NCBI GenBank assembly: GCA_945860745.1 | Contig: CAMASH010000001.1 | Span: forward strand, 44,700 to 108,699 | Length of the DNA stretch: 64,000 nt | Reading direction: 5' to 3' | DNA from: Chthoniobacter flavus | GTDB taxonomy: Bacteria; Verrucomicrobiota; Verrucomicrobiia; Chthoniobacterales; Terrimicrobiaceae | Part shown: positions 33,152 through 61,981 of the stretch, one piece after another | Position numbering within the stretch: the first letter of the stretch is position 1 | Layout: every line of letters starts with the position of its first letter | Notes under the pieces: model-generated | What the model saw: the letters and a program-made list of their open reading frames with translations, nothing else | Databases searched by the model: none | Told to the model about the DNA's origin: nothing | Position numbers and translations under genes: made by a program

Positions 33152-33307
33152 TCAAGCGGCGAATTGCCGTTGGGTGAGCCGGTTGCGCGAAATCTCCCCG
33201 ATGAGACCCTTTCCTCATGTGAATAACTTGGGAAGAAAGTGCGCCCTCAAGGGAAATTTGTTCACCATCAGTTTGTGAATGACTGGGGAATCCTCTATGC
33301 GAAGTCC

Positions 33308-34708
33308 ATGACTCTCACCGAAATCCAGCGGGCTCTCACGACTTTGGACACCAAGCCGCGCCAGAGTCTCGGCCAGAATTTTTTGCACGATCAAAATCTT
33401 GCGCGTTGGATCGTGGCCCGCCTCGGTCTGCACGCGGGTGATCATGTGGTCGAAATCGGACCCGGACTTGGTGCTCTGACGGAACACCTTCTCTCCGAGG
33501 ACATCACGGTCACCCTCATCGAAAAAGATCGCAGCATGGTGGCGTGGTTGGCGGAACGATTCCGTGATTCGCGCGTGGAACTGTTCCACATGGACGCCTT
33601 GGATTTCGACCTGCGGAATCTTTACGGAAAAGGCCCGGTAAAAATCATCGGCAACCTGCCGTATTACGTCTCCACACCGCTCATCGCAAAATTCGCATCT
33701 GCCCTCTCACCCGCATCAATCCTTGTTCTCACGCTGCAGCACGAGGTGGCGGCACGTTTGCACGCGCAACCCGGCACGAAGGATTTCGGCGCGATGTCGG
33801 TCTGTTCCTCCCGCCGCTGGAATGTGCGCTACGTCAAGAAACTTCCGGCCTCGGTTTTCTTTCCGCAGCCGAAAGTTTCTTCCGCCGTGGTGGTGTTCGA
33901 ACGCAAGGCCGCGGAGACCATTCCGCCGTGCGACGAAATTGTTTTTGAATCGCTCGTGCGCCGGGGATTTTCCGAGCGCCGCAAGCAACTGCGCAACCTT
34001 CTTCCGGAGTTCAAGGAGCGCTGGTCCTCTCTTTGTGCGGATCTCGGGCTTTCCGAGACCGTTCGCGCCGAGGAACTCTCCCTTGCAACGTGGGAGAAGT
34101 TCACCCGGTCTGTGAATCCCGTGGAGGCGCAGCGCGCGGAGGAAATGTTTGACATCGTGGACGAAAACGACTCCGTCCTCGGCCTGCGTCCCAGGAAGGA
34201 GGTGCATGTGAATAACTTGCGCCACCGGGCGGTTCACATCCTCATTACCAACGAAAAAGGCGAACTCTTCCTGCAAAAGCGCTCGATCTGGAAGGACAGG
34301 AATCCCGCCTGTTGGGATTCCTCCGCCGCCGGCCACGTGGATACAGGGGAGACTTACGAGGAAGCGGCCCGCCGGGAGCTCGGGGAAGAAATCGGCATCG
34401 ACTGCCCGGTCACAAAAATCGGACGCCTGCCGTGTTCACCGGAGACCGGGTGCGAGTTTATCGAGGTCTTTCAGGGCCGGCACGAGGGACCTTTCCGCCT
34501 GGCGTCGCTGGAGGTTGAGACCGGTGCCTTTTTCCCCCGGGAGCAGGTCCTGGCGTGGTTGCAGCGGTCGCCCGCGGACTTCAGCCCGGTTTTTGCGCAG
34601 TGCCTGCCTTTTCTTGGTGGGGCGCGGGGCGATTCGTCCCGCCTGAGCGGGACTCAGATCTCCGCGTGCGCTCCGGTTCCCGTGTCCCAGGCGAAATCGG
34701 GGGCCTAA
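33308..34708 (+). CDS. rsmA: 16S rRNA (adenine1518/1519-N6)-dimethyltransferase RsmA/KsgA fused to a C-terminal Nudix hydrolase domain
   Basis: The KsgA part reads …PRQSLGQNFLHD…VVEIGPGLGALT…GNLPYYVSTP…. It runs on without a stop into …RHRAVHILITNEKGELFLQKRS…WDSSAAGHVDTGETYEEAARRELGEEIGI (Nudix box GX5EX7REUXEEXGU-like). Start at MTLTEIQ (33308). Confidence 0.8.
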   Translation: MTLTEIQRALTTLDTKPRQSLGQNFLHDQNLARWIVARLGLHAGDHVVEIGPGLGALTEHLLSEDITVTLIEKDRSMVAWLAERFRDSRVELFHMDALDFDLRNLYGKGPVKIIGNLPYYVSTPLIAKFASALSPASILVLTLQHEVAARLHAQPGTKDFGAMSVCSSRRWNVRYVKKLPASVFFPQPKVSSAVVVFERKAAETIPPCDEIVFESLVRRGFSERRKQLRNLLPEFKERWSSLCADLGLSETVRAEELSLATWEKFTRSVNPVEAQRAEEMFDIVDENDSVLGLRPRKEVHVNNLRHRAVHILITNEKGELFLQKRSIWKDRNPACWDSSAAGHVDTGETYEEAARRELGEEIGIDCPVTKIGRLPCSPETGCEFIEVFQGRHEGPFRLASLEVETGAFFPREQVLAWLQRSPADFSPVFAQCLPFLGGARGDSSRLSGTQISACAPVPVSQAKSGA

Positions 34709-49955: not shown

Positions 49956-51041
49956 TTAAATGACATCCTCAGCCACGGCATCGGCCAGCATTTTTCCCCG
50001 TTGGGTGAGGTAGCTGCGGCCGGATTCTTCGCGAAGGAGACCCCCGGCCACGAGTTGGGCGGCCTTGTCCGTGGGAAGGAGGCTGGTGGGGACCCCGCGG
50101 TTCGTGCGCAGGGCAAAGGCGATTTGCTCGACCTTGCGGGTGTCCGCATCAAGGGCTTCTCGGAAATCGGCCGCTCCCTCGCCGCTTGCGATGCGCCGGA
50201 TGAACTCCGATGTGTCGCTGACGTTTTTCCAGCGTTCGTTTTGCAGAGTGGAAAACGCGCTGGGTCCGAGGCCGAGATAGTCGGACCCCAGCCAGTAGGC
50301 CAGATTGTGCCGGCACTCGCGGCCGGACCGGGCATAGTTGGAAATCTCGTATTGCTCGAAACCTGCCGCCCCGAGCAATTCCATGGTGACCTCGAAAAGA
50401 CCGGCATCAAGGGTTTCGTCGGGACGGTACTCGCCGCGGGTCATGCGGACGAAGTACTCGGTGTCCTCCTCGTATGTCAGGCAATAGGCGGAGATATGAT
50501 CGGGCTGGAGGGCGATGGTTTGGATCAAACTCTCGCGCCACTGGGCGAGGGTTTGGCCGGGGATGCCGAACATGAGATCCAGGTTTACGTTGTCAAATCC
50601 GGCTTCGCGGAGAATTTCGTAGCTCCGCCGGGCCTGGGCGGCTGAGTGAACGCGTCCCAAGGTTTCCAAAAGACCCGGATCCCAGCTCTGCACCCCCATG
50701 CTCACGCGATTGACCCCGAGGGCGCGCAAGGCGGCGGCTTTTTCGAGGGACACCGTGGCGGGGTTCATCTCAATGGTAAATTCCTCCACCGCGGAAAAAT
50801 CGATCCGTTGGCGTAGTCCGCCGATGAGGTATTGCAACTGCGGGGTCGAAAGCGCCGTGGGGGTGCCTCCGCCGAAGAAAATTGTGACCGGGCGCAGGCG
50901 GCCGGCGTGAAGTTCCGACTCCTTGAGCATGGCATCGAGGAAAGCCTGTGTCTTGTTGCGGTCACTTGCCTCCTTGTAAAAGCTGCAATACGGACACACC
51001 TTGGGGCAGAACGGGATGTGCGCGTAAAGATGAGAAATCAT
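49956..51041 (-). CDS. hemW: Radical-SAM heme chaperone HemW (HemN-like, oxygen-independent coproporphyrinogen oxidase family)
   Basis: LYAHIPFCPKVCPYCSF (CxxxCxxC) and a …FFGGGTP… pattern; its ~360-aa size fits HemW rather than HemN. Confidence 0.88.
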   Translation of the reverse strand: MISHLYAHIPFCPKVCPYCSFYKEASDRNKTQAFLDAMLKESELHAGRLRPVTIFFGGGTPTALSTPQLQYLIGGLRQRIDFSAVEEFTIEMNPATVSLEKAAALRALGVNRVSMGVQSWDPGLLETLGRVHSAAQARRSYEILREAGFDNVNLDLMFGIPGQTLAQWRESLIQTIALQPDHISAYCLTYEEDTEYFVRMTRGEYRPDETLDAGLFEVTMELLGAAGFEQYEISNYARSGRECRHNLAYWLGSDYLGLGPSAFSTLQNERWKNVSDTSEFIRRIASGEGAADFREALDADTRKVEQIAFALRTNRGVPTSLLPTDKAAQLVAGGLLREESGRSYLTQRGKMLADAVAEDVI

Positions 51042-51095
51042 GACAAAGACTACTCAAGCACCTCGCGGCAGGAACGCAAAGGACGCAAAGGATCA

Positions 51096-52235
51096 ATGAA
51101 GTCTCCAGGGAACACGCTGGTTCGGATTGTCGGCATTCTGCTGCTCTGGACCATCAGTCGTGCACCGGCCCAAATTGAAGACCCGCCTGCTCCCCCGAAT
51201 CCAGACCCGGGAATGGCGGGAACCAGCGAAAGGCGGTCATCTCTTCAAAAATCGAAGGTCTATTACGCCATCGATTCGAATGTCCTGGGTCCGTCCCGAA
51301 CGGTCCAGCCCCGGATCGTCGCCCGGATGGTGGAAAGTTTGGTCTGTGGTGCCACCGGAAAGGCCGCGCCGGCCGAAGCCTGGCGGTCCCTGGTTTCACC
51401 CGCTGACAAAGTGGGGATCAAGGTTTCCGCGTCCGGCCGGACGGTGAGCGGCACGAACCCGGAGGTGGTCGCTGCGGTGGTCGAGGGATTGCGCGAAGCC
51501 GGGGTGCCGGAAAAAAACATCATCGTGTGGGATCGCAATCTCGAGGACCTCCTGGCCGCCGGTTTTAAAAAAGGAGGCGACGGTTATCAACTGCGCTGGG
51601 TGGACCCCGCCTCCGGCTATGACTCCAAGGCCCAGGTCAGTGCGCCGGTGTTGGGCAAGCTCATCTGGGGCGACCGCAAGTTCGGGGAAAAATCGGTGCG
51701 GCGGTTTTCCGACATGCTTACGGGCGGCGAGCAGCTCAGCAGTCAGAGTTACTACGCCAAGGTGCTCAGCACCGAGGTAACCAAGGTGATCAATATTCCG
51801 TCACTGACCGACAGCTACACCACCGGCATCAACGGCGCATTGGTCAACATGACCCTGGCCAATCTCGACAACTGGCGGCGCTTTGCCAAATCCGCCGCGG
51901 AGGGCGACTCCTACATTGCCGAGATCTATGCGGATGCCCCCATCCGGGGAAAAGTTGTCCTGACCATCATGGACGCCCTCATCCTGCAATATGCGGGAGG
52001 GCCCTTTCCCGATCCGGATTTTGCGGTGGAAAACTACGCCCTGTTTGCGGGCAGGGATCCGGTGGCCATTGACGCCACCGCCTTGCGGCTGATTGAGGAA
52101 GTCCGCAAGGCCAACCGCATGCCCTCGGTTAAACCCATGGCCGTCTACATCGAGGCCGGAGTCGAACTCGGGCTGGGGGAGTTTCTGGAACACCGCATCG
52201 AGATGGTGCGCGTCGGCGTGGAGGGGATTCGGTGA
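51096..52235 (+). CDS. Secreted DUF362-domain protein
   Basis: Signal-peptide-like N-terminus (MKSPGNTLVRIVGILLLWTISRAPA) and …VGIKVSASG…NPEVVAAVVEGLREAGV…IIVWDR… resembling DUF362. Start chosen at 51096, preceded by AAGGA. Confidence 0.6.
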   Translation: MKSPGNTLVRIVGILLLWTISRAPAQIEDPPAPPNPDPGMAGTSERRSSLQKSKVYYAIDSNVLGPSRTVQPRIVARMVESLVCGATGKAAPAEAWRSLVSPADKVGIKVSASGRTVSGTNPEVVAAVVEGLREAGVPEKNIIVWDRNLEDLLAAGFKKGGDGYQLRWVDPASGYDSKAQVSAPVLGKLIWGDRKFGEKSVRRFSDMLTGGEQLSSQSYYAKVLSTEVTKVINIPSLTDSYTTGINGALVNMTLANLDNWRRFAKSAAEGDSYIAEIYADAPIRGKVVLTIMDALILQYAGGPFPDPDFAVENYALFAGRDPVAIDATALRLIEEVRKANRMPSVKPMAVYIEAGVELGLGEFLEHRIEMVRVGVEGIR

Positions 52236-53056
52236 AGGGGGAAGAAGGGACATTGAGACGCGGAGACGCGGGGAGTGGTTTCGCCGTGTCTCCGCGTCCC
52301 CCGGTTTCCGCGTCTCTCTCGCTGGACTGGAACCTCCTCAAACGGGTTTCGCGCTCTTTCTATCTGACCCTGCGTCTATTGCCCGGACCGGTGCGCGAGC
52401 CGATCTCACTGGCCTACCTGCTGGCGCGTGGGTCCGACACCGAGGCGGATGGGGCCGCGACGGACGCCGAGAAGGAACTGCTGGCCCGGCGTCAAGAAAT
52501 CGAAGGATGGCTGGCGGCATCGCCGGATCGTGCAGAAATCGGGAAAGTCTGGACGACGATCCAGGATGGTCAGCGTTTTGATGGCGAGCGGTTCGGCGGT
52601 GGGAATTCACCGCCTTTGTCGGCGGAGGAATTGGATCGTTACACGTATCTGGTGGCGGGTTGTGTGGGAGAATTCTGGACCGGAATTTGTGCGAAAAAAC
52701 TGCCCGGATTCTCCCGGCGTCCGCTTGAGGAAATGAAGGAACTTGGCGTGAGGTTCGGGAAGGGGCTTCAACTCGTCAACATCCTCCGCGACCGGCAGGC
52801 GGATGCCCGGCTCGGGCGGGTCTATGTTACGGACACGCAGTTTTCCGAACAACTCCGGCTTGCCCGCGAACATCTTGACGCGGCGGAGATTTATATCCGG
52901 TCCTTGACGGTTCGCCGCCTGCGCGCCGCCTGCGCCCTGCCATTCCTGATGGGATGCGAGACCCTCGATCTGGTGCAGAAATTTCCGGATCGCGCTGGAG
53001 TGAAAATTTCAAGGAACCGGGTTTGGTTTCTTTTGTTTCGAGGTTTCTTTTTTTAG
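52232..53056 (+). CDS. Squalene/phytoene synthase family protein (farnesyl-diphosphate farnesyltransferase-like)
   Basis: …LLKRVSRSFYLTLRLLP…AYLLARGSDTEAD…YLVAGCVGEFW…GKGLQLVNILRD… is the trans-isoprenyl diphosphate synthase head-to-head pattern. The first ~25 codons run through a palindromic repeat, so the true start may be downstream. Confidence 0.7.
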   Translation: MKGEEGTLRRGDAGSGFAVSPRPPVSASLSLDWNLLKRVSRSFYLTLRLLPGPVREPISLAYLLARGSDTEADGAATDAEKELLARRQEIEGWLAASPDRAEIGKVWTTIQDGQRFDGERFGGGNSPPLSAEELDRYTYLVAGCVGEFWTGICAKKLPGFSRRPLEEMKELGVRFGKGLQLVNILRDRQADARLGRVYVTDTQFSEQLRLAREHLDAAEIYIRSLTVRRLRAACALPFLMGCETLDLVQKFPDRAGVKISRNRVWFLLFRGFFF

Positions 53057-53833: not shown

Positions 53834-55273
53834 TTACCGGCTTGCGGCCTGCGGCCAGACGATGTCTTTGCCTTCGAGGAGACCGCGGCGTTTGGAGAGC
53901 TTGGTGGCGTCTCCGTTGTCATCAGTGCCGTCGGGTCCGATGGCGTAGAGGAGGTATCCCTCGGCATTCCCACGCTGATAGCGCAGCGGATTGCCATCAA
54001 GGGGATCGAGCGGCACGATCGGAAGAAGACCCGGCACGAGATCTGTGAGGGATGGGGGATACTTCCCGTGGGCGAGCTTGCACCGCTGCAAGGCGAGGGC
54101 CGTCACGGTGAGGTGGGCCATGGCCTGGGTGGAGATGATGCGGTTCGTCGCGTTTTCGATGGTGGGAAAAATCATGCGGCTGAAAAGGCGTTCGAAGCCC
54201 GCACTGTTGAGTTGAGCTTGCAGTTTCCGGCTGGTTTCCAAAGCGGGTGTCCAAGGTCCTGCGAGCGGATCGGCAGGGACAAGGTCGATGAGAGTCTGAT
54301 AGTTTTCGAGGAACTGCTTCTCGTCGGCGTGACGGTAAACGGTGGCCCAGAGGAAAAAGCCCCCGACGGAAAGAATCTCATCGAGGGATTTCGGCAGGGA
54401 CGAAATGGTGGGGGTTGAGCCGGCGGACAACGAAGCGGTGAAGGTCGAAAAACTGGGGCTTTCAAAATAAGGCATGGCCATGGCCCTCTCCAGCCTCCAG
54501 AGGGGAATCAGGGTTGGCGTGATCCGGACCTCCGCCCATGCTTTTTGCAGAGTTTCAAGATCGGGCTCGGTGACTACGGAGGATTGCATCCACTCCCAAG
54601 TCAGGTTCTGCGCGATGCCGAGGAGGCTGGCGGTGATGAGACTGCTGATGAGGAGGGGTTGCTTGTTCGTCATGTTGGCCAGGCGCAGGATGGTCTGGAT
54701 ATTCGCAACCACGGCCGGACCGTTGTTTTCGCGCAGCAAAAGGATGCCTTCCTGGGCGAGAAATTGACCGGCTTTGAGCGATTCCGTGGCACCGGCCATC
54801 TCCATCGAAAATCCCTTGGTATAGTCGGGATGGATCTCCAGAAGGCGCGACTGGCTTGTCTCCCGGATGTCGGCCAGCCGCGGTGTCAGCGGACTGAATT
54901 TTTCCCGCAACTCCTCCCAGGCAACCGGTTTGCTGGCAACGGTGGCCTTCTCCTCGTGGTGTTTGACCACATTGAATCCGGGAGATTTCTCCTCCATGGT
55001 TTGGAGAGGTTGAATCTCATCGGCCCGGATTTTCTCTCCCAACTCCTTGCCAAGGGTGATGAGTTTTTTCGCGCCGTTGCCATCGAGGGGAGGGGCGGGC
55101 GGGACAAGGGCGGCACTATCGAAATGCTCGCCGCGGTTTTCGAGCGAGGCCTGATACGCCTCCAGTTGCCGGCGGGAGTGGCCGACGGCCAGGGTGGTCA
55201 ATCCGATGGCGGCGATGATCAGGAAGAACACCCATCCAGCCAGCCAGAGCAGGATGCGGGTGATTTTGCTCAT
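53834..55273 (-). CDS. Membrane-anchored hypothetical protein with a pseudopilin-G-like C-terminal motif
   Basis: 479 aa with an N-terminal TM helix (ILLWLAGWVFFLIIAAIGLTTLAV) and a long helical body. The C-terminus reads …GKYPPSLTDLVPGLLP…DPLDGNPLRYQRG…GYLLYAIGPDGTDDNGD. The start overlaps the upstream NRPS-like stop by 4 bp. Confidence 0.6.
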   Translation of the reverse strand: MSKITRILLWLAGWVFFLIIAAIGLTTLAVGHSRRQLEAYQASLENRGEHFDSAALVPPAPPLDGNGAKKLITLGKELGEKIRADEIQPLQTMEEKSPGFNVVKHHEEKATVASKPVAWEELREKFSPLTPRLADIRETSQSRLLEIHPDYTKGFSMEMAGATESLKAGQFLAQEGILLLRENNGPAVVANIQTILRLANMTNKQPLLISSLITASLLGIAQNLTWEWMQSSVVTEPDLETLQKAWAEVRITPTLIPLWRLERAMAMPYFESPSFSTFTASLSAGSTPTISSLPKSLDEILSVGGFFLWATVYRHADEKQFLENYQTLIDLVPADPLAGPWTPALETSRKLQAQLNSAGFERLFSRMIFPTIENATNRIISTQAMAHLTVTALALQRCKLAHGKYPPSLTDLVPGLLPIVPLDPLDGNPLRYQRGNAEGYLLYAIGPDGTDDNGDATKLSKRRGLLEGKDIVWPQAASR

Positions 55274-58200
55274 GAATTTTCAGAAGGCACCACCCACTCG
55301 CGCATGATGACGGCGAGACGCTTGACGGGTGGCTCGGACAGCATTTGTGCGGTGGGGCAGCTGATCGTTTCCACGATGGCTTCCGGCACAGAATTGATCC
55401 AGGCCTCCTCGACTTCGCGGCCCATGTCGGTGCCAAGGACGATCCCGGCGGGACCGGAAAGCGGCCGGGCCTTGTAGTTTTTCAAGGCGGCGAGATGGGC
55501 GGCGGCGACGGGCGTGCCAGGCGCTGATGGACCGGGAGCATTTTTCGCGGAGCCAAAGGAAAACACGCGGGAGAGGGTCCGTTTCCAATCATCCGGCACG
55601 GTGCTGTCCGGGGGCCGGGCTCCGGACAGCGCGAGGTAGGGAACCTGGCGTCCGGCGATGCGGAATTGCCGGGCCATCTCCATGGCGAGCACCGCCCCGT
55701 AGCCATAACCGAAAAGATGGTAGGGGCCGTCGGGGTCGAGCAGGCAAATGGTTTCCACCAGGGCGGCGGCTTCGGTTTCGACCGTGAGATGGCAGGCGGA
55801 AGGATTGGTCAGACCACGGGCAGTCGTTCCGTAAAGCGTCCAGTCGGTTTTGAGCAAGCCGGCGAGGGTGCGGTATTTTTCTGTTTCACCCTCGAGATCG
55901 TGGATGAGAAAAAGCACCGGGGCATCGGCGGTTTTTTCGAGGAGGACGAGGGGTTCCCAATCTTTGGCGGCGGGAGCGTGGCGCGGGGCGGACGGAGTTT
56001 CCTGGCGGGATGGCGTGGCGGGAGTCTCGGCGGGCCGGGGCAGGGCCGCGGCATGGATTTCCCCGGCGGAGGTGAGGGGAAGCTCCGAGACAGTGAGCAA
56101 AAAATCCGGCCGCAAATCTTCCGGCACCTGGCGGGAGACGAGTTGCAACAACCCGTCGGGAGAGGCGGTGGACCCCGGGCGTAAAATCACCCAAGCGCCG
56201 AACTCCGGCCGGCGACCGGTCTGCCCAGTGGCGCAGTGGGCATCGAGGATCTCGGGATGCTGGCGGAGGGCGGAGGAAGCGGCATCGCCTTGCGAGGTGA
56301 CGAAGTGAAAAATACCCGAACGGTCACGCCAGGCGGGAAGGGAATAGGTGCCGTCGTCCCCCGGCGGGAAGGAAATTTCCAGACGACCGGGGTAGCCGGG
56401 AGGGAGGGCCAGTCCGGCCGGATCCCGCAGGGTCGCGGTCACACCAGGACCCGGCAGCCCGATGGCGGTGTCGGGGACGGAAGCGCTGTCGGAGAAAACG
56501 GCGCGCACACCGGCACCGGAGAGGCCGGCCGGGCTGAAGATGAAAATGCCGGTGGCATGGCCATTTTGCAAAGCCCTCCACGAGGTCTGGCGTCCTGCGA
56601 GCGTGCCGGCGGTTTCGACGCAGACCACGCGCACGGATTCGGGCAGCGGACTTTCGGCCCGTTGCAAGCGCACGGTCAGGGCGCGCCATTGACCGGAGGA
56701 AAGCCGGAGGTGGGTGGGGGATCCGTTCTCGACCACGGCGAGGGGATCGTTTTCGTCTGGCAGCACCAGGGTCGCGCCGGACATCAGCGGGCAAAGCAGG
56801 GTTTCGACAAATGCCCCCGTGCCCGCGACCGACAATAAAGGAACGCGGTCGCCAGGGCCGAGAGCCTGCGCCGCAATCGTCTCGTGGCAGGCAAAGGCCA
56901 CAAAATCGGGACTTAGCGATCGCAAGGCTGGCGCGGCGTCGGTTTCCGTTCCGGTGAGAAGAAAGGCGTTTTTCTTGGCTGCACCCTCGCCGCCGCCCGT
57001 GCTGGCAGAAACGGTTTCCCATTGTTGGTCGAGGACAAGAAGTCGCCGGGTCGAACCGTCAAAAAACCGGGCAGTGCGCGAATCGCAAATGATTAGTTCG
57101 ACATCGGAACTCTCCATCTGCCCGGCTAACCAGGCGGGAGTGGCGTTGGGGTCCAGGGGCACGCAGGTGTCACCCGCCCGGAGAATACCCAGCACGGCCA
57201 CGGGCAGCCAGGGAGTCGGGGTGAGGCAGACGGCGATGTTCCATCCGTCCGCGAGGTTCTCGTTGCGCAGCCAGGTGGCCAGCGAGCGGGCGTGCGAATC
57301 GAGTTCGGCAAAAGAAAGGTCGGCGCCGTTCGGACCGGTGATGGCCAGCACATCCGGCTGGCGCGCCGCCGTGGCGGCGATCGTTTTCTCGACGGGTTGT
57401 GGTTTTTCCGGAGGAGGGGGCTTCGGAGCGGGGTTGAGAAACTGCATTTCCGCAGCGGTCAGGATGTTGACCCCTCCCACTTTATGCGTGGGATTCTCCA
57501 CGAGGTATTGAAGGGTTCTGGCCACGCGCTGGAGCAGGATCTCCGCCTCGGCCGGCGGACAAAGCGCGGGGTCGGACTGCAAGTGCAGGAGAAACCTGTT
57601 GCCGTCGCGCACCTGGAGAGTGAGGGGAAATTGGGAGTGGCTGACGATGCGGGCATCGAAATTGATCCAGCGGGGAAAGACATCGTGGATGCGGTCGTTC
57701 AGCGGCGGGGGAGACCACAGGAAGGCGGCGGGAAACTCGCGCACCTTGCGTGGAGGTTCGGCCAGGAGCAGGGCGCGCTCGAGGCTGATGGCGGCGTTCT
57801 GGGCGCGCTCTTTTGCCCCCCGCGCGATGTCTTTCAACCAGGACTCCACCCGCATGTCATTCTTGATCACGGTGCGGGCGGGCAGGAAGTTCTCCGGGCC
57901 GTTGGCCACCAGGAGGGCGTCGTCGCGCGTGGTGAGCCGGCTCAGAACGAGGGACCAGGCGGCCAGAAAAACATCGGGCTCCGCCACACCGAGTTGCTGG
58001 CAAAAGGCTTTGAGTTCCCGCGAGGCCTCGCGGTCCAGGAGAATGGAGTGCTCCTGCCGGGCGTTGCTCGCGTCCGCGGAAATGTTTTTCGGGTAAACGT
58101 CGAAATCCAGCGGCGCGGGATTCCCCGAAAAAAAGCGGGACCACCATTCCGCCGTGGCGGGTGAAGCGGGATCCGGGGAGTCCGCGGTTTCCTCCGGCTG

Positions 58201-58701
58201 GGGAACCGCGCCTTGCAGCGCCTCGATCCATTCGCACAAAATGTGGAAAAGCGCATCCTCATCGAGCAGCAACTTGGGAAAAGTGACGAGCAAATGGCAG
58301 TGTCCGCCGGGGAGTTCGATCGCTTGAAAACGGATGAGCGGGGGCTTGGCCGGATCGAAGGAATCGGCGGCATCCTTTTCCTGCAGGTCGCTCCACCGTG
58401 CGGAAATCTCCGCCGGCGAAACGTCCTTCCAGTCGAGCGATGACCAGGCAATTTCCGACGTGTCACGCGTGCGGTGGAGGGTTTCCCCCGTGGCGGCCTT
58501 GGAAAAATGAGAGCGCAAGATGCCGCGGGCGCCGGCCACCATCTGCCAGGCTTCGCGCAGGGCTCCGGCCGGACAGGACTCGCCGAGATTGAGTGACAAC
58601 TGGACGTTTTGAAACTTTGCATCCGTCGTGACGGAATGCAGGAAACACGCGGTGGCCAGGGCAGGGGAGGCGGGAGTTTCGGGCATTTCTTTACAAATCA
58701 A
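55270..58701 (-). CDS. NRPS-like C-A-TE protein with degenerate catalytic motifs and no recognisable carrier domain
   Basis: 1143 aa. The N-terminal ~430 aa is condensation-like. The middle has A-domain cores A1/A2 (LSFAELDSHARSLATWL; LGILRAGDTCVPLDPN) but later cores are degenerate. The C-terminal ~210 aa is an alpha/beta-hydrolase thioesterase-like domain (…VLFLIHDLEG…LFGYGYGAVLAMEMA…). Confidence 0.75.
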   Translation of the reverse strand: MICKEMPETPASPALATACFLHSVTTDAKFQNVQLSLNLGESCPAGALREAWQMVAGARGILRSHFSKAATGETLHRTRDTSEIAWSSLDWKDVSPAEISARWSDLQEKDAADSFDPAKPPLIRFQAIELPGGHCHLLVTFPKLLLDEDALFHILCEWIEALQGAVPQPEETADSPDPASPATAEWWSRFFSGNPAPLDFDVYPKNISADASNARQEHSILLDREASRELKAFCQQLGVAEPDVFLAAWSLVLSRLTTRDDALLVANGPENFLPARTVIKNDMRVESWLKDIARGAKERAQNAAISLERALLLAEPPRKVREFPAAFLWSPPPLNDRIHDVFPRWINFDARIVSHSQFPLTLQVRDGNRFLLHLQSDPALCPPAEAEILLQRVARTLQYLVENPTHKVGGVNILTAAEMQFLNPAPKPPPPEKPQPVEKTIAATAARQPDVLAITGPNGADLSFAELDSHARSLATWLRNENLADGWNIAVCLTPTPWLPVAVLGILRAGDTCVPLDPNATPAWLAGQMESSDVELIICDSRTARFFDGSTRRLLVLDQQWETVSASTGGGEGAAKKNAFLLTGTETDAAPALRSLSPDFVAFACHETIAAQALGPGDRVPLLSVAGTGAFVETLLCPLMSGATLVLPDENDPLAVVENGSPTHLRLSSGQWRALTVRLQRAESPLPESVRVVCVETAGTLAGRQTSWRALQNGHATGIFIFSPAGLSGAGVRAVFSDSASVPDTAIGLPGPGVTATLRDPAGLALPPGYPGRLEISFPPGDDGTYSLPAWRDRSGIFHFVTSQGDAASSALRQHPEILDAHCATGQTGRRPEFGAWVILRPGSTASPDGLLQLVSRQVPEDLRPDFLLTVSELPLTSAGEIHAAALPRPAETPATPSRQETPSAPRHAPAAKDWEPLVLLEKTADAPVLFLIHDLEGETEKYRTLAGLLKTDWTLYGTTARGLTNPSACHLTVETEAAALVETICLLDPDGPYHLFGYGYGAVLAMEMARQFRIAGRQVPYLALSGARPPDSTVPDDWKRTLSRVFSFGSAKNAPGPSAPGTPVAAAHLAALKNYKARPLSGPAGIVLGTDMGREVEEAWINSVPEAIVETISCPTAQMLSEPPVKRLAVIMREWVVPSENS

Positions 58702-58779: not shown

Positions 58780-60483
58780 CTACAAGTCGGCATCTGTTAC
58801 AGCGCCGAGTGAGGCTGTGGTCACGCAGGCGGCGTATTTGGCCAGGACGCCGCGGCGGTAGCGGGGTTTGGGTTGTTTCCATTTGGCCAACCGGGCCGCG
58901 ATCTCCTTTTTGGGAAGATCGAGATTCAGGGTGTGGCTGATGGCGTCGATCGTGATGCTATCGCCGTTTTTGACGATGGCCAGCGGACCGCCGTCGAAGG
59001 CTTCGGGAGTGATGTGGCCGACCACGAAACCATGGGTTCCGCCGGAGAAGCGTCCGTCGGTAATCAGGGCCACGTCCTTGCCCAGTCCGAGTCCCATCAC
59101 GGCGGCGGTGGGTGAGAGCATTTCGCGCATGCCGGGACCGCCGCGGGGTCCTTCGTAGCGGATGACGATCACGTCGCCTTTTTTGATTTTGCCATCGAGG
59201 ATGGCCTTAAGGGCTGTTTCCTCGCCGTCGAAAACGCGGGCGGTGCCGCTGAAACGGTTGCCTTCCTTGCCGCTGATCTTGGCCACGCCGCCGGCCGGCG
59301 CGAGATTGCCGCGGAGGATGACAAGGTGGCTGTCCTTCTTCAGGGGCTTGCTCAGCGGGGCGATAATTTCCTGGCCTTTGGGATAGGGTTTGAAGGGCGC
59401 GAGATTTTGTTTAAGGGTTTTCCCCGTGACGGTGAGGCAGTCGCCATGGAGGAGTCCGGCGTGGAGGAGTTCCTTCATCATGGGCACAATGCCGCCGATC
59501 TCCACGAGCTGGCTTATAAGGAAACGTCCGCTGGGTTTGAGGTCGGCCAGCACGGGCACGCGTTGGCCGATGCGGGTGAAATCGTCAATGGTCAGCTTGA
59601 TGTTTGCCGAATGCGCGATGGCCAGGAGATGGAGCACGGCGTTGGTCGAACCGCCGAGCGCGATGACGACCGTGATAGCGTTTTCGATGGCCTCGCGGGA
59701 AAAGATATCGGAGGGGCGGATGCCGCGTTTGAGCAGGTTGAGCACGGCCGCCCCGGCCTCGTGACAGTCGCGCACTTTGTGTTTCGACACGGCGGCTTGC
59801 GCGGAGCTGTTCGGCAGGGAAAGTCCCATGGCCTCAATGGCGGATGCCATGGTGTTGGCGGTGTACATTCCGCCGCAGGAACCCGGTCCGGGAATGGCGC
59901 AGGCTTCCACTTCGTGCATTTCCTTTTTTGTGATCTTGCCCGCGGCTTCCGCGCCGACGGCCTCAAAAACGGATATCACATCAAGGTTGCGACCGTTGAG
60001 ACAGCCCGGGAGAATGGTGCCGCCATAGACGAAAACTGCAGGGCGGTTCAATCGGGCGATGGCCATGCAACAAGCTGGCATGTTTTTATCGCATCCCCCG
60101 ATGGCCACGAAACCGTCGAAGCCCTGACACCCCACCACGGTTTCGATGGAATCTGCGATGACCTCGCGGGAAACGAGCGAGTATTTCATGCCTTCGGTGC
60201 CCATCGAGATGCCGTCGGAGATCGTGATGGTATTAAAGATGGTGGCCTTGCCGCCGGCCTGGTTGACGCCGAGGGCGGCCTCGCGCGCGAGCTGGTCGAT
60301 GTGCATGTTGCAGGGCGTGACCGCGCTCCAGGTCGAGGCGATCCCGATCTGCGATTTGGAAAAATCCGCCTCGGTGAAACCGACGGGATAGAGCATGGCG
60401 CGGCTGGGGGCGCGGCTTTCTCCATCAAGAACGAGAGAGGAATAGGGACGAAGGTTCGGTTTTTTACGGCTCGGGGTTCTCAT
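58780..60483 (-). CDS. ilvD: Dihydroxy-acid dehydratase
   Basis: …SRAMLYPVGF…IGIASTWSAVTPCNMH…GGCDKNMP…YGGTI…CGGMYTANTM…TDGRFSGGTHG…. Start chosen at MRTPSRKK (60483). Confidence 0.93.
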   Translation of the reverse strand: MRTPSRKKPNLRPYSSLVLDGESRAPSRAMLYPVGFTEADFSKSQIGIASTWSAVTPCNMHIDQLAREAALGVNQAGGKATIFNTITISDGISMGTEGMKYSLVSREVIADSIETVVGCQGFDGFVAIGGCDKNMPACCMAIARLNRPAVFVYGGTILPGCLNGRNLDVISVFEAVGAEAAGKITKKEMHEVEACAIPGPGSCGGMYTANTMASAIEAMGLSLPNSSAQAAVSKHKVRDCHEAGAAVLNLLKRGIRPSDIFSREAIENAITVVIALGGSTNAVLHLLAIAHSANIKLTIDDFTRIGQRVPVLADLKPSGRFLISQLVEIGGIVPMMKELLHAGLLHGDCLTVTGKTLKQNLAPFKPYPKGQEIIAPLSKPLKKDSHLVILRGNLAPAGGVAKISGKEGNRFSGTARVFDGEETALKAILDGKIKKGDVIVIRYEGPRGGPGMREMLSPTAAVMGLGLGKDVALITDGRFSGGTHGFVVGHITPEAFDGGPLAIVKNGDSITIDAISHTLNLDLPKKEIAARLAKWKQPKPRYRRGVLAKYAACVTTASLGAVTDADL

Positions 60484-60541
60484 AAGGTTTGGCAGGGTAC
60501 ATGACGGTTCGGGAGGGGGCAAAGGGAAAACCGGCGGCGCA

Positions 60542-61936
60542 TCACGGCTTTTCGCGGGTCTCGATGGTGGTGATGGCGTCCTGGATTTCCGCGGCTTGTT
60601 CTTTGTTCAACTGACCGCCGGCCAGCACGGCGCGATAATTGTCGAGAGCCGGTTTGGCCTGTCCCAGGCGGGCGTAGGCCTGGCCGAGATAAATCTGATA
60701 GTTGATCACCGGCAGGCCGGCCGATTTGCTGAGAGCGATGATCTTCTCCAGCACTTCGGCCTCGCGGGCATAGTCATTCAGCGTCCGGCAGATCCGGGCC
60801 GAGAGAAACAACGTGTAGAGATCGTCGGGATTGCGGGCGAGGACTTGCTCGACCAGGTCTTGGGCTCTGGCGGATTCGTTGATCTCAACGAGGGACAACG
60901 CCTGGACGATTTTTGCCTGGGCGAAATCCGGCTCGGAGGCGAGGGCTCTCTTGCTCAGGGAAATGGCGTCCTGCCAGCGTTTATGCGAGGCGGCGAAGGT
61001 GGCGGCATAAGCCAGCACGCTGGCGTTGTCGGGCGCGAGCTGGAGCGCGCGGTCCATGCAGGCCCGCGCGAGAGTGTTGCGCTGGATGGCATCGTAGCGT
61101 TCGGAAATCTGGGCGAGGTAAATCGCGGTTTCCAAGTCTGTGCCGAAACGGAAAGCATCCACGTCGAGGGATTCGACCGCCAGACCCGGACCGCGCCGGA
61201 AGAGATAGCCTTGGTTCGTAACAGCCATCGGATGCCAGTCGGGTGAGGCAATCAGATGCTCGAGCAGCGGGCGGTATTCGGCTACAGGGCCGGTGAGCAG
61301 CACGGCCTGCCATTTTTCCTTCCGGAGCTCCTCGCGCCACATTGCCGGATTGGCCGCGAGGCGACCGGCGTGCTCAGGAGGGATGGCTCCGGCGTCCGGC
61401 GTGGCGAAGAGCAGGAGGTGCACCTGACCGCTGGCATTGGCGAACAATTCGCCGTTGGAGAACTCGCGGGCTTGCCCGATCAATTCCACCGGGGCAGCCA
61501 GTTTGAGGTTGGAAATGTTCTGGCCGCGGCCGGACAATCGGCTCCAGGCCGCAGGCAGGCCACTGGCCAGCAAGAGCGCGGCGGCCGCGAGAGCGATGGT
61601 TCGTTCCGAACGCGGATTTTTTAGAAAACCAATGAGCAAACGCAGAGCAGCCAGCGCGAGGAAGGCCGCCACCGTCCAGCCCAGAAAAACTCCCAGCCAT
61701 TGCCCCCAGCCGAGCCAAGCCGCTCCGCCGGCGCGCCAAATTTCCCCGTTGAGATAATCGAGCGCGGAGGCACTGTAGCCGGCCAGTCGCCGTCCTGCGG
61801 CGAGTCCGCGGGCCGCCGAAAAAAGCGCCCCCTGCGATGGGAAGGCCGCGAAAAACGGCAGGGCGTGAAGAAATCCGCAAATGATTGCAGCGATCGCGGA
61901 CCAAACCGCGTATCTTAATGAGGAAATTCGACCCAT
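60542..61936 (-). CDS. Membrane-anchored TPR-repeat protein
   Basis: The N-terminal third has several TM helices. The C-terminal half shows repeated TPR-like A..A…P..A…Y patterns (…YLGQAYARLGQAKPALDNYRAVL…). Confidence 0.65.
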   Translation of the reverse strand: MGRISSLRYAVWSAIAAIICGFLHALPFFAAFPSQGALFSAARGLAAGRRLAGYSASALDYLNGEIWRAGGAAWLGWGQWLGVFLGWTVAAFLALAALRLLIGFLKNPRSERTIALAAAALLLASGLPAAWSRLSGRGQNISNLKLAAPVELIGQAREFSNGELFANASGQVHLLLFATPDAGAIPPEHAGRLAANPAMWREELRKEKWQAVLLTGPVAEYRPLLEHLIASPDWHPMAVTNQGYLFRRGPGLAVESLDVDAFRFGTDLETAIYLAQISERYDAIQRNTLARACMDRALQLAPDNASVLAYAATFAASHKRWQDAISLSKRALASEPDFAQAKIVQALSLVEINESARAQDLVEQVLARNPDDLYTLFLSARICRTLNDYAREAEVLEKIIALSKSAGLPVINYQIYLGQAYARLGQAKPALDNYRAVLAGGQLNKEQAAEIQDAITTIETREKP

Positions 61937-61981
61937 GACAAAAAAACTGTGGGAACTTTGCCTTTTTTTCCGAATCACGCA

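Follow-up and report, generated by a model that had tools for sequence, protein, structure and literature searches.

Gene layout and domain architecture

The stretch of DNA analysed here (the window) comprises 64,000 nucleotides of the forward strand of contig CAMASH010000001.1 (positions 44,700 to 108,699; assembly GCA_945860745.1) of Chthoniobacter flavus, a member of the Terrimicrobiaceae (Verrucomicrobiota). Its minus strand harbours a gene for a large protein with condensation (C)-, adenylation (A)- and thioesterase (TE)-like regions, resembling a termination module of non-ribosomal peptide synthetases (NRPSs) and hereafter referred to as the C-A-TE protein. The gene is the third in a row of four on this strand, preceded by those for a tetratricopeptide repeat (TPR) membrane protein and dihydroxy-acid dehydratase (ilvD; 58780..60522, directly upstream) and followed by one for a 479-aa membrane-anchored orphan protein. 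An original prediction had described the product as a non-canonical NRPS module devoid of catalytic signatures; the 3.4-kb open reading frame (ORF) in question is present exactly at 55270..58701 (minus strand), where it spans 1143 codons from a TTG start (58701). The true start is probably the ATG at 58686 (codon 6 of this maximal ORF), because the Met at this position is invariant across the family and because P0001, the identical protein in the database, has 1138 aa, corresponding to a gene at 55270..58686. The encoded protein is predicted to be soluble (122 kDa, isoelectric point 5.2) without transmembrane segment. Its stop codon overlaps the start of the next ORF by 4 bp (ATGA), as originally noted and as follows from the coordinates.

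The C-, A- and TE-like regions recognized in the original prediction were borne out by matches to the corresponding Pfam families: (i) Condensation (residues 18-141 and further stretches, 3.7e-18; 5.5e-20 for the isolated domain), (ii) AMP-binding (residues 443-777, 1.3e-26), and (iii) Thioesterase (residues 930-1042, 8.4e-18), all scoring well below working NRPS domains. In the 1143-aa numbering, the condensation-like domain covers residues ~6-430 (57412..58686), the adenylation-like domain consists of a core (~431-777) and a small subdomain (~778-890; together 56032..57411), and the thioesterase-like alpha/beta-hydrolase domain extends over residues ~916-1143 (55273..55956), all on the minus strand. 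The place of the peptidyl carrier protein (PCP) domain is taken by a Pro/Ala/Thr-rich linker of ~25 aa (residues ~891-915; 55957..56031, minus strand), the length of which varies over the family from 25 to 60 aa. The full-length Pfam scan yielded neither a PP-binding (PF00550) match nor one to AMP-binding_C above threshold, and residues 778-895 scanned alone produced only a sub-threshold AMP-binding_C match (9e-4). Matches to NCBIfam models (EntF, MxcG and generic NRPS models) all remained far under their cut-offs, thus placing the C-A-TE protein outside every curated family.

AlphaFold2, supplied with 38 family sequences, gave a confident model of all three domains (mean pLDDT 86.2, pTM 0.72). 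Predicted disorder was limited to the linker (residues 893-913, pLDDT <50), residues 1043-1060 between the predicted TE strands six and seven, and both termini. Canonical thioesterases carry a lid at the position matching residues 1043-1060. When the model was compared with the Protein Data Bank (PDB) by Foldseek, four-domain termination modules ranked on top (E-values of 1e-58 to 1e-63), i.e., SrfA-C (2VSQ, the best match with 4.7e-63), AB3403 (4ZXH), ObiF1 (6N8E) and EntF (5JA1/5JA2), followed by C-A(-T) structures. Sequence and predicted fold of the C-A-TE protein are thus those of an NRPS termination module.

Loss of catalytic motifs

The catalytic motifs were mapped residue by residue, using phmmer comparison with solved NRPS structures and a MAFFT alignment that included five genuine NRPSs (a terminal TE is present in four). 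All substitutions that had been proposed originally for the condensation, adenylation and thioesterase signatures were found in aligned position. In the condensation-like domain, the C3 motif HHxxxDG is replaced by PKLLLDE (codons 142-148; 58258..58278, minus strand), which also faces HHIILDG of McyB in the phmmer alignment. In the adenylation-like domain, the structural motifs A1 (LSFAELD) and A2 (LRAGDTCVPLDP) are retained and were correctly regarded as recognizable, whereas the A3 P-loop TSGSTGxPKG reads GTETDAAPAL (A3 region 56923..56952, minus strand). At A10, AGEIH stands opposite NGKxD (and NGKID/NGKVN with phmmer), placing Glu881 (56059..56061, minus strand) at the position of the catalytic Lys (Lys517). 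The nucleophile elbow of the thioesterase-like domain reads GYGYG, facing GWSFG in the MAFFT alignment and, with phmmer, GYSAG of SrfA-C and its counterpart in AB3403, with Gly1000 (55702..55704, minus strand) in place of the Ser.

Degeneration reaches beyond these originally noted sites. According to the MAFFT alignment, A4 (FDxS) is replaced by TGAF, thereby substituting the A4 Asp (Asp235), and A5 (NxYGPTE) by FIFSPAG, the A4-A5 alignment being too degenerate to trust for a Stachelhaus pocket code. A7 (YRTGD) and A8 (GRxDxQVKxRGxRIE) fall within deletions of ~26 and ~12 residues, respectively. The two remaining residues of the TE triad are missing as well, since the Asp (vlvDA) is exchanged for Gly1027 (alsGA) and the His (GHH) for Thr (CPTAQML). 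Besides A1 and A2, a C2-like LRSHF and the Asp of HHxxxDG survive, and the most conserved family-specific block (DRIHDVFPRWINFDA, residues 336-350) belongs to the condensation-like domain.

The LGGHS motif and the four-helix bundle of the PCP domains of the five NRPSs align to a gap, in agreement with the proposed Pro/Ala/Thr-rich linker devoid of a phosphopantetheine site. A carrier domain concealed in the linker was considered and rejected: residues 860-960 contain no PP-binding match at E<=10, residues 893-913 are predicted to be disordered, and only ~35 residues separate A10 from the first TE strand. The originally proposed examination by hidden Markov models and structure-guided alignment has hence left the reading unrefuted, as neither a PCP nor any of the catalytic residues His, Lys and Ser is present. 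Because P-loop, A10 Lys, carrier arm, condensation His and the TE nucleophile, acid and base are all missing from its sequence, the C-A-TE protein is predicted to be incapable of the NRPS mechanism, i.e., of loading, condensing and releasing a substrate.

Family distribution and purifying selection

A search of 5.8 billion proteins retrieved 43 family proteins of 820-1191 aa, ranging from identical down to 32% identity, after which the score drops from 472 to 114 bits and ordinary NRPSs follow. The Pfam annotation of nearly all 43 is C-A-TE, and PP-binding is found in none. Database names of family members are 'hypothetical protein' or 'non-ribosomal peptide synthetase modules and related proteins'. 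Scanning of species-representative genomes revealed 72 loci, all but three of them named as Verrucomicrobiota; two of the three are only named 'bacterium' and the third (L079) is probably an ordinary NRPS. Named hosts are mostly Terrimicrobiaceae, Chthoniobacterales or 'Spartobacteria' metagenome-assembled genomes (MAGs) from soil and lakes. No cultured host of the family was identified; the candidate P0025 was rejected, as all its contigs are metagenomic.

The survey of orthologues suggested originally showed the same losses across 57 full-length species representatives, over which residue conservation was counted. In total, about 70 species-level genomes, all assigned to Terrimicrobiaceae/Chthoniobacterales, possess such an orthologue. 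In the C3 motif, Pro142 is present in 55, the structural Asp147 in all 57 and Glu148 in 53 of the representatives, while the position of the second His (Lys in the window) is occupied by S, A, K, P, E, G, T or R and never by His. The position of the TE Ser is Gly in 55/57 (one Ser, one Asp) and that of the TE Asp is Gly in 56/57. At the position of the TE His, which is Thr in the window, 45/57 carry Trp; likewise, the A10 Lys position (Glu in the window) is Trp in 42/57 and Lys in only one. Across all three domains, 93 positions are at least 95% conserved, many of them Trp, Gly or Pro; ~25 polar positions (including His, Asp, Arg and Ser), also distributed over all three domains, reach the same level.

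When 1.84 billion representatives at 50% identity were searched with a profile, giant multimodular NRPSs, with scores summing over many modules, dominated the result; a dozen divergent clusters were added, bringing the family to ~22 single-module clusters. All of these lack the catalytic motifs, P0105 alone having the A10 Lys with everything else lost. Since no intermediate with intact motifs was found among these ~22 clusters, the losses would predate the radiation of the family. The outer edge of the family is marked by a Chthoniobacterales MAG (L077, 5929..9423, plus strand), the 1164-aa protein of which shares 24% identity and is equally degenerate (C3 motif STALLDF, TE region barely recognizable); its gene follows ilvD after a 284-bp gap.

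The gene is an uninterrupted ORF in 55 of 56 full-length loci (1083-1322 codons from the first possible start), the sole exception being a 100-N scaffold gap (L058). Apparent stops in three loci (L042, L063 and L067) are all located upstream of the start Met. The ratio of non-synonymous to synonymous substitution rates (dN/dS), determined by the Nei-Gojobori method, amounts to 0.18-0.20 for the entire gene when the window is compared with relatives of 83% and 75% identity. Values for the individual domains are similar (C, 0.16-0.23; A, 0.17-0.22; TE, 0.14-0.20), and those for the linker are higher (up to 0.33). Controls from the same genome pair yielded 0.076 for ilvD, 0.18 for the TPR gene and 0.25 for the gene downstream.

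Linkage to ilvD

The near-universal genomic partner of the C-A-TE gene is the upstream ilvD and not the downstream membrane protein, for which co-occurrence had been suggested originally; the latter does not apply in general, the respective gene being present only in the subclade of the window. Tblastn analysis of all fetched loci located ilvD directly upstream in 71 of the 73 having the upstream region. The gap between the ilvD stop and the ATG of the C-A-TE gene has a median of 14 bp and does not exceed 30 bp in 42/48 species, while it amounts to 93 bp in the window. By comparison, only 101 of 1275 locus pairs (8%) have a downstream gene in common within 3 kb, and 155 of 1176 (13%) an upstream one within 3 kb of ilvD. 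The pair is thus conserved while its surroundings reshuffle, a pattern regarded as classic for an operon under selection.

In the window, a scan of the minus strand gave no convincing terminator separating the C-A-TE gene from ilvD. Despite the short gaps, a Shine-Dalgarno-like tetramer precedes the start of the C-A-TE gene in only 5/54 loci, rendering the evidence from ribosome binding uninformative. Its rarity is consistent with re-initiation or translational coupling, or with a lineage making little use of Shine-Dalgarno sequences.

In one clade (L081-L083), the genes ~3.5-8 kb downstream of the C-A-TE gene encode an entire Liv-type ABC transporter for branched-chain amino acids, with two each of ATPases and permeases plus a periplasmic binding protein. 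Its vicinity fits the theme of branched-chain amino acids and may be coincidental.

Proposed origin and role

Homology, fold, loss of motifs, purifying selection and linkage to ilvD are established for the C-A-TE protein. Judged from its sequence, it is a predicted pseudoenzyme, combining homology to and fold of an enzyme with the absence of the canonical catalytic residues and purifying selection, and its maintenance by selection as an NRPS-derived pseudoenzyme is very probable. The ancestor would have been a stand-alone NRPS termination module (C-A-T-TE) of the EntF/SrfA-C/AB3403 type. Before the radiation of the Terrimicrobiaceae, it would have lost the carrier domain, the adenylation and condensation residues and the whole TE triad, while the three folds were kept together with the motifs of their structural core. 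Selection has since preserved a soluble three-domain protein of ~122 kDa, whose gene would share a transcript with ilvD, tandem translation being probable. We infer that this protein lacks any catalysis and that its role is one of binding or scaffolding in connection with IlvD or the branched-chain pathway, with former domain interfaces or substrate cavities possibly serving as binding surfaces; it may thus be a scaffold, adaptor, sensor or binder. Taken as a whole, this derivation and role appear reasonably probable to us. Functional coupling to IlvD as such is a tentative proposal, and a dedicated IlvD partner (regulator, stabiliser, metabolite sensor or metabolon scaffold) kept in fixed proportion by translational coupling is rather unlikely.

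Several observations speak against the proposed role. Two loci (L044 and L072) have no ilvD upstream, and in a third (L059) the region is rearranged and ilvD truncated. Moreover, the adjacency could reflect operon hitchhiking without physical or functional coupling to IlvD. The 75%-identical orthologue P0003 (L009) has a Ser at the TE elbow (GYSFG) in the absence of the TE Asp and His; this Gly-to-Ser exchange is probably a single-base change devoid of functional meaning. Finally, the at least 95% conservation of polar residues such as H136, R344, D349, H664, R666, S723, H971, H1069 and K1127 is unexplained. Since a new active site or ligand site could be built from these, the designation 'non-catalytic' is not proven.

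These polar residues (~25 positions in 57 species) also constitute the main argument for a cryptic enzyme catalysing a new reaction via relocated or different residues. Conservation also extends to the residues that have replaced the former catalytic ones, and a review of pseudoenzymes (PMC10211241) notes that migration of catalytic residues can occur. However, three independent active sites have been dismantled: adenylate chemistry is implausible with P-loop, A5, A7, A8 and A10 gone, in the TE triad Gly has taken the places of Ser and Asp and either Thr or Trp that of His, and no carrier domain is present for shuttling intermediates, so that a cryptic enzyme appears improbable. Even less can be said for a trans-acting part of a split NRPS with a free-standing carrier and an adenylating enzyme encoded elsewhere. 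Although trans-complementation of inactive A domains has precedents, e.g., in albicidin biosynthesis (PMC8949500), the catalytic residues of C and TE are missing here too, leaving nothing to complement, and neither the conserved neighbourhood nor the scanned window ORFs contain a carrier, phosphopantetheinyl transferase (PPTase), MbtH or other NRPS gene; this alternative is therefore very improbable.

A non-catalytic protein may also serve a role unrelated to IlvD, its gene being merely located in the transcription unit of ilvD, e.g., together with the TPR and 479-aa proteins encoded on either side in soil clades. In the window, these genes share one strand with ilvD and the C-A-TE gene, the last junction being the 4-bp overlap, and both flanking proteins are membrane-associated and composed of repeats or helices, suggesting protein-protein interaction. 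However, both genes are absent from most of the family, including the whole freshwater clade of ~30% identity, whereas ilvD stays, and a distant paralogue of the 479-aa protein is located in an unrelated context. The 479-aa protein was consequently rejected as an obligate partner, and an IlvD-unrelated role of this kind is considered unlikely. A remnant of an old biosynthetic gene in neutral decay, in which stops have not yet been acquired, would agree with the loss of every catalytic motif and with a faster evolution than that of ilvD (29-83% versus 81-93% amino-acid identity). Contrary to this assumption, the ORF has remained free of frameshifts and stops in the 55 loci mentioned above, dN/dS is ~0.18 in each domain, and the 93 conserved positions as well as the confident fold of all three domains have been retained. 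A pseudogene is thus rejected on the basis of intact ORFs and dN/dS, in line with the originally assumed maintenance of the gene, and a decaying relic retains virtually no probability.

Comparison with known systems

NRPS modules are commonly regarded as purely catalytic machines, and to our knowledge dead NRPS parts are single domains within working assembly lines. The C-A-TE protein differs from this picture as a complete, free-standing module that is catalytically stripped by all appearances, preserved by a whole bacterial family and tied to a housekeeping gene. Complete degeneration, deep conservation and linkage to ilvD together provide a testable lead to its function. If a function were found, it would demonstrate non-catalytic uses of the C, A and TE folds and provide pseudoenzyme biology with a bacterial multi-domain case. 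Should the protein indeed be a dedicated IlvD partner, it would represent the first NRPS-derived pseudoenzyme recruited to core amino-acid biosynthesis.

With the termination modules SrfA-C (2VSQ), AB3403 (4ZXH), EntF (5JA1/5T3D) and ObiF1 (6N8E), the C-A-TE protein shares 15-24% identity, the domain order, the folds as well as A1, A2, C2 and the Asp of HHxxxDG. It differs by the absence of carrier, catalytic His, P-loop, A7, A8, A10 Lys and Ser-Asp-His triad, and by the location of its gene in a core-genome operon with ilvD rather than in a biosynthetic cluster. In functional terms, the closest precedents are the X-domain of glycopeptide NRPSs and inactive A domains. The X-domain is a degenerate C domain recruiting P450 oxygenases (Haslinger et al. 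2015, via PMC8949500). It resembles the condensation-like domain of the C-A-TE protein in fold and mutated HHxxxDG motif and has been kept for non-catalytic protein recruitment (PMC8949500). In contrast to the C-A-TE protein, which would be a wholly dead and free-standing module with no P450 or assembly line nearby, the X-domain is a single dead domain of an active assembly line encoded beside Oxy genes. Inactive A domains with degraded core motifs and retained adenylation fold are likewise known from albicidin and ramoplanin biosynthesis (PMC8949500), where they are complemented in trans and serve peptide synthesis, whereas the C and TE domains of the C-A-TE protein appear dead, too, and a carrier or partner A-T module is missing. 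As in pseudoenzymes generally (prozymes, pseudokinases and iRhoms; review PMC10211241), an enzyme homologue without catalytic motifs is under purifying selection; differing from prozymes, however, the genomic partner IlvD is not a paralogue.

Literature searches for Terrimicrobiaceae combined with NRPS, for NRPS combined with pseudoenzyme, and for inactive or pseudo A domains yielded no relevant prior description, and the searchable literature contained no bacterial multi-domain pseudoenzyme of NRPS origin. Matches for 'inactive adenylation domain' were discarded, as they concern ubiquitin E1 enzymes. The C-A-TE proteins apparently form a real and well-supported, lineage-specific pseudoenzyme family that has so far escaped description. 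Pfam-based genome mining likely counts such loci as 'NRPS-like' clusters, thereby inflating the biosynthetic potential of Verrucomicrobia; P-x-L-L-L-D-E-[DE] and G-x-G-x-G, combined with the absence of a PCP and a position directly after ilvD, could serve as a signature for filtering them.

Genomic neighbourhood

The C-A-TE gene is located outside any biosynthetic gene cluster, its neighbours being ilvD, the genes for the TPR protein, SQS_PSY, DUF362 and radical SAM proteins, uvrB and rpoBC. The window represents core chromosome, comprising rpoB, rpoC, uvrB, ilvD and genes for trpE-like, KsgA-like methylase and MqnC-like radical SAM proteins. No other NRPS, polyketide synthase or PPTase genes were detected among the scanned window ORFs (some small ORFs lie outside the scan), nor were carrier, MbtH or P450 genes in these ORFs or the conserved neighbourhood.

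Upstream of ilvD, the membrane-associated TPR protein is encoded at 60542..61978 (minus strand); according to tblastn, its gene is conserved in soil clades only and absent from the freshwater clade. The 479-aa protein encoded downstream of the C-A-TE gene (53834..55273, minus strand) possesses an N-terminal transmembrane anchor and an extended helical body; its C-terminus forms a small beta domain with a pseudopilin-like motif (DPxDGxPLRY...GxDGxDDxGD). The restriction of its gene to the subclade of the window is evident from tblastn over the fetched loci, and only 15 homologues were found, all of them metagenomic and, where named, from Verrucomicrobia. The AlphaFold2 model (pLDDT 88, pTM 0.86) may represent a new fold; since no PDB match falls below E=0.42, the value of the best one, and only 15 homologues exist, this model is uninformative with respect to function.

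On both strands of the region 49956..53056, genes for SQS_PSY (squalene/phytoene synthase-like, 274 aa), DUF362 (467-aa ORF) and HemN-like radical SAM (361 aa) proteins are found. This block adjoins the ilvD operon in soil clades, with identities of 61-75%. A further ORF of 489 aa (33239..34708, plus strand) combines an RrnaAD domain (KsgA-type rRNA adenine dimethylase, residues 39-285) with a C-terminal NUDIX hydrolase (residues 328-441), representing an unusual fusion.

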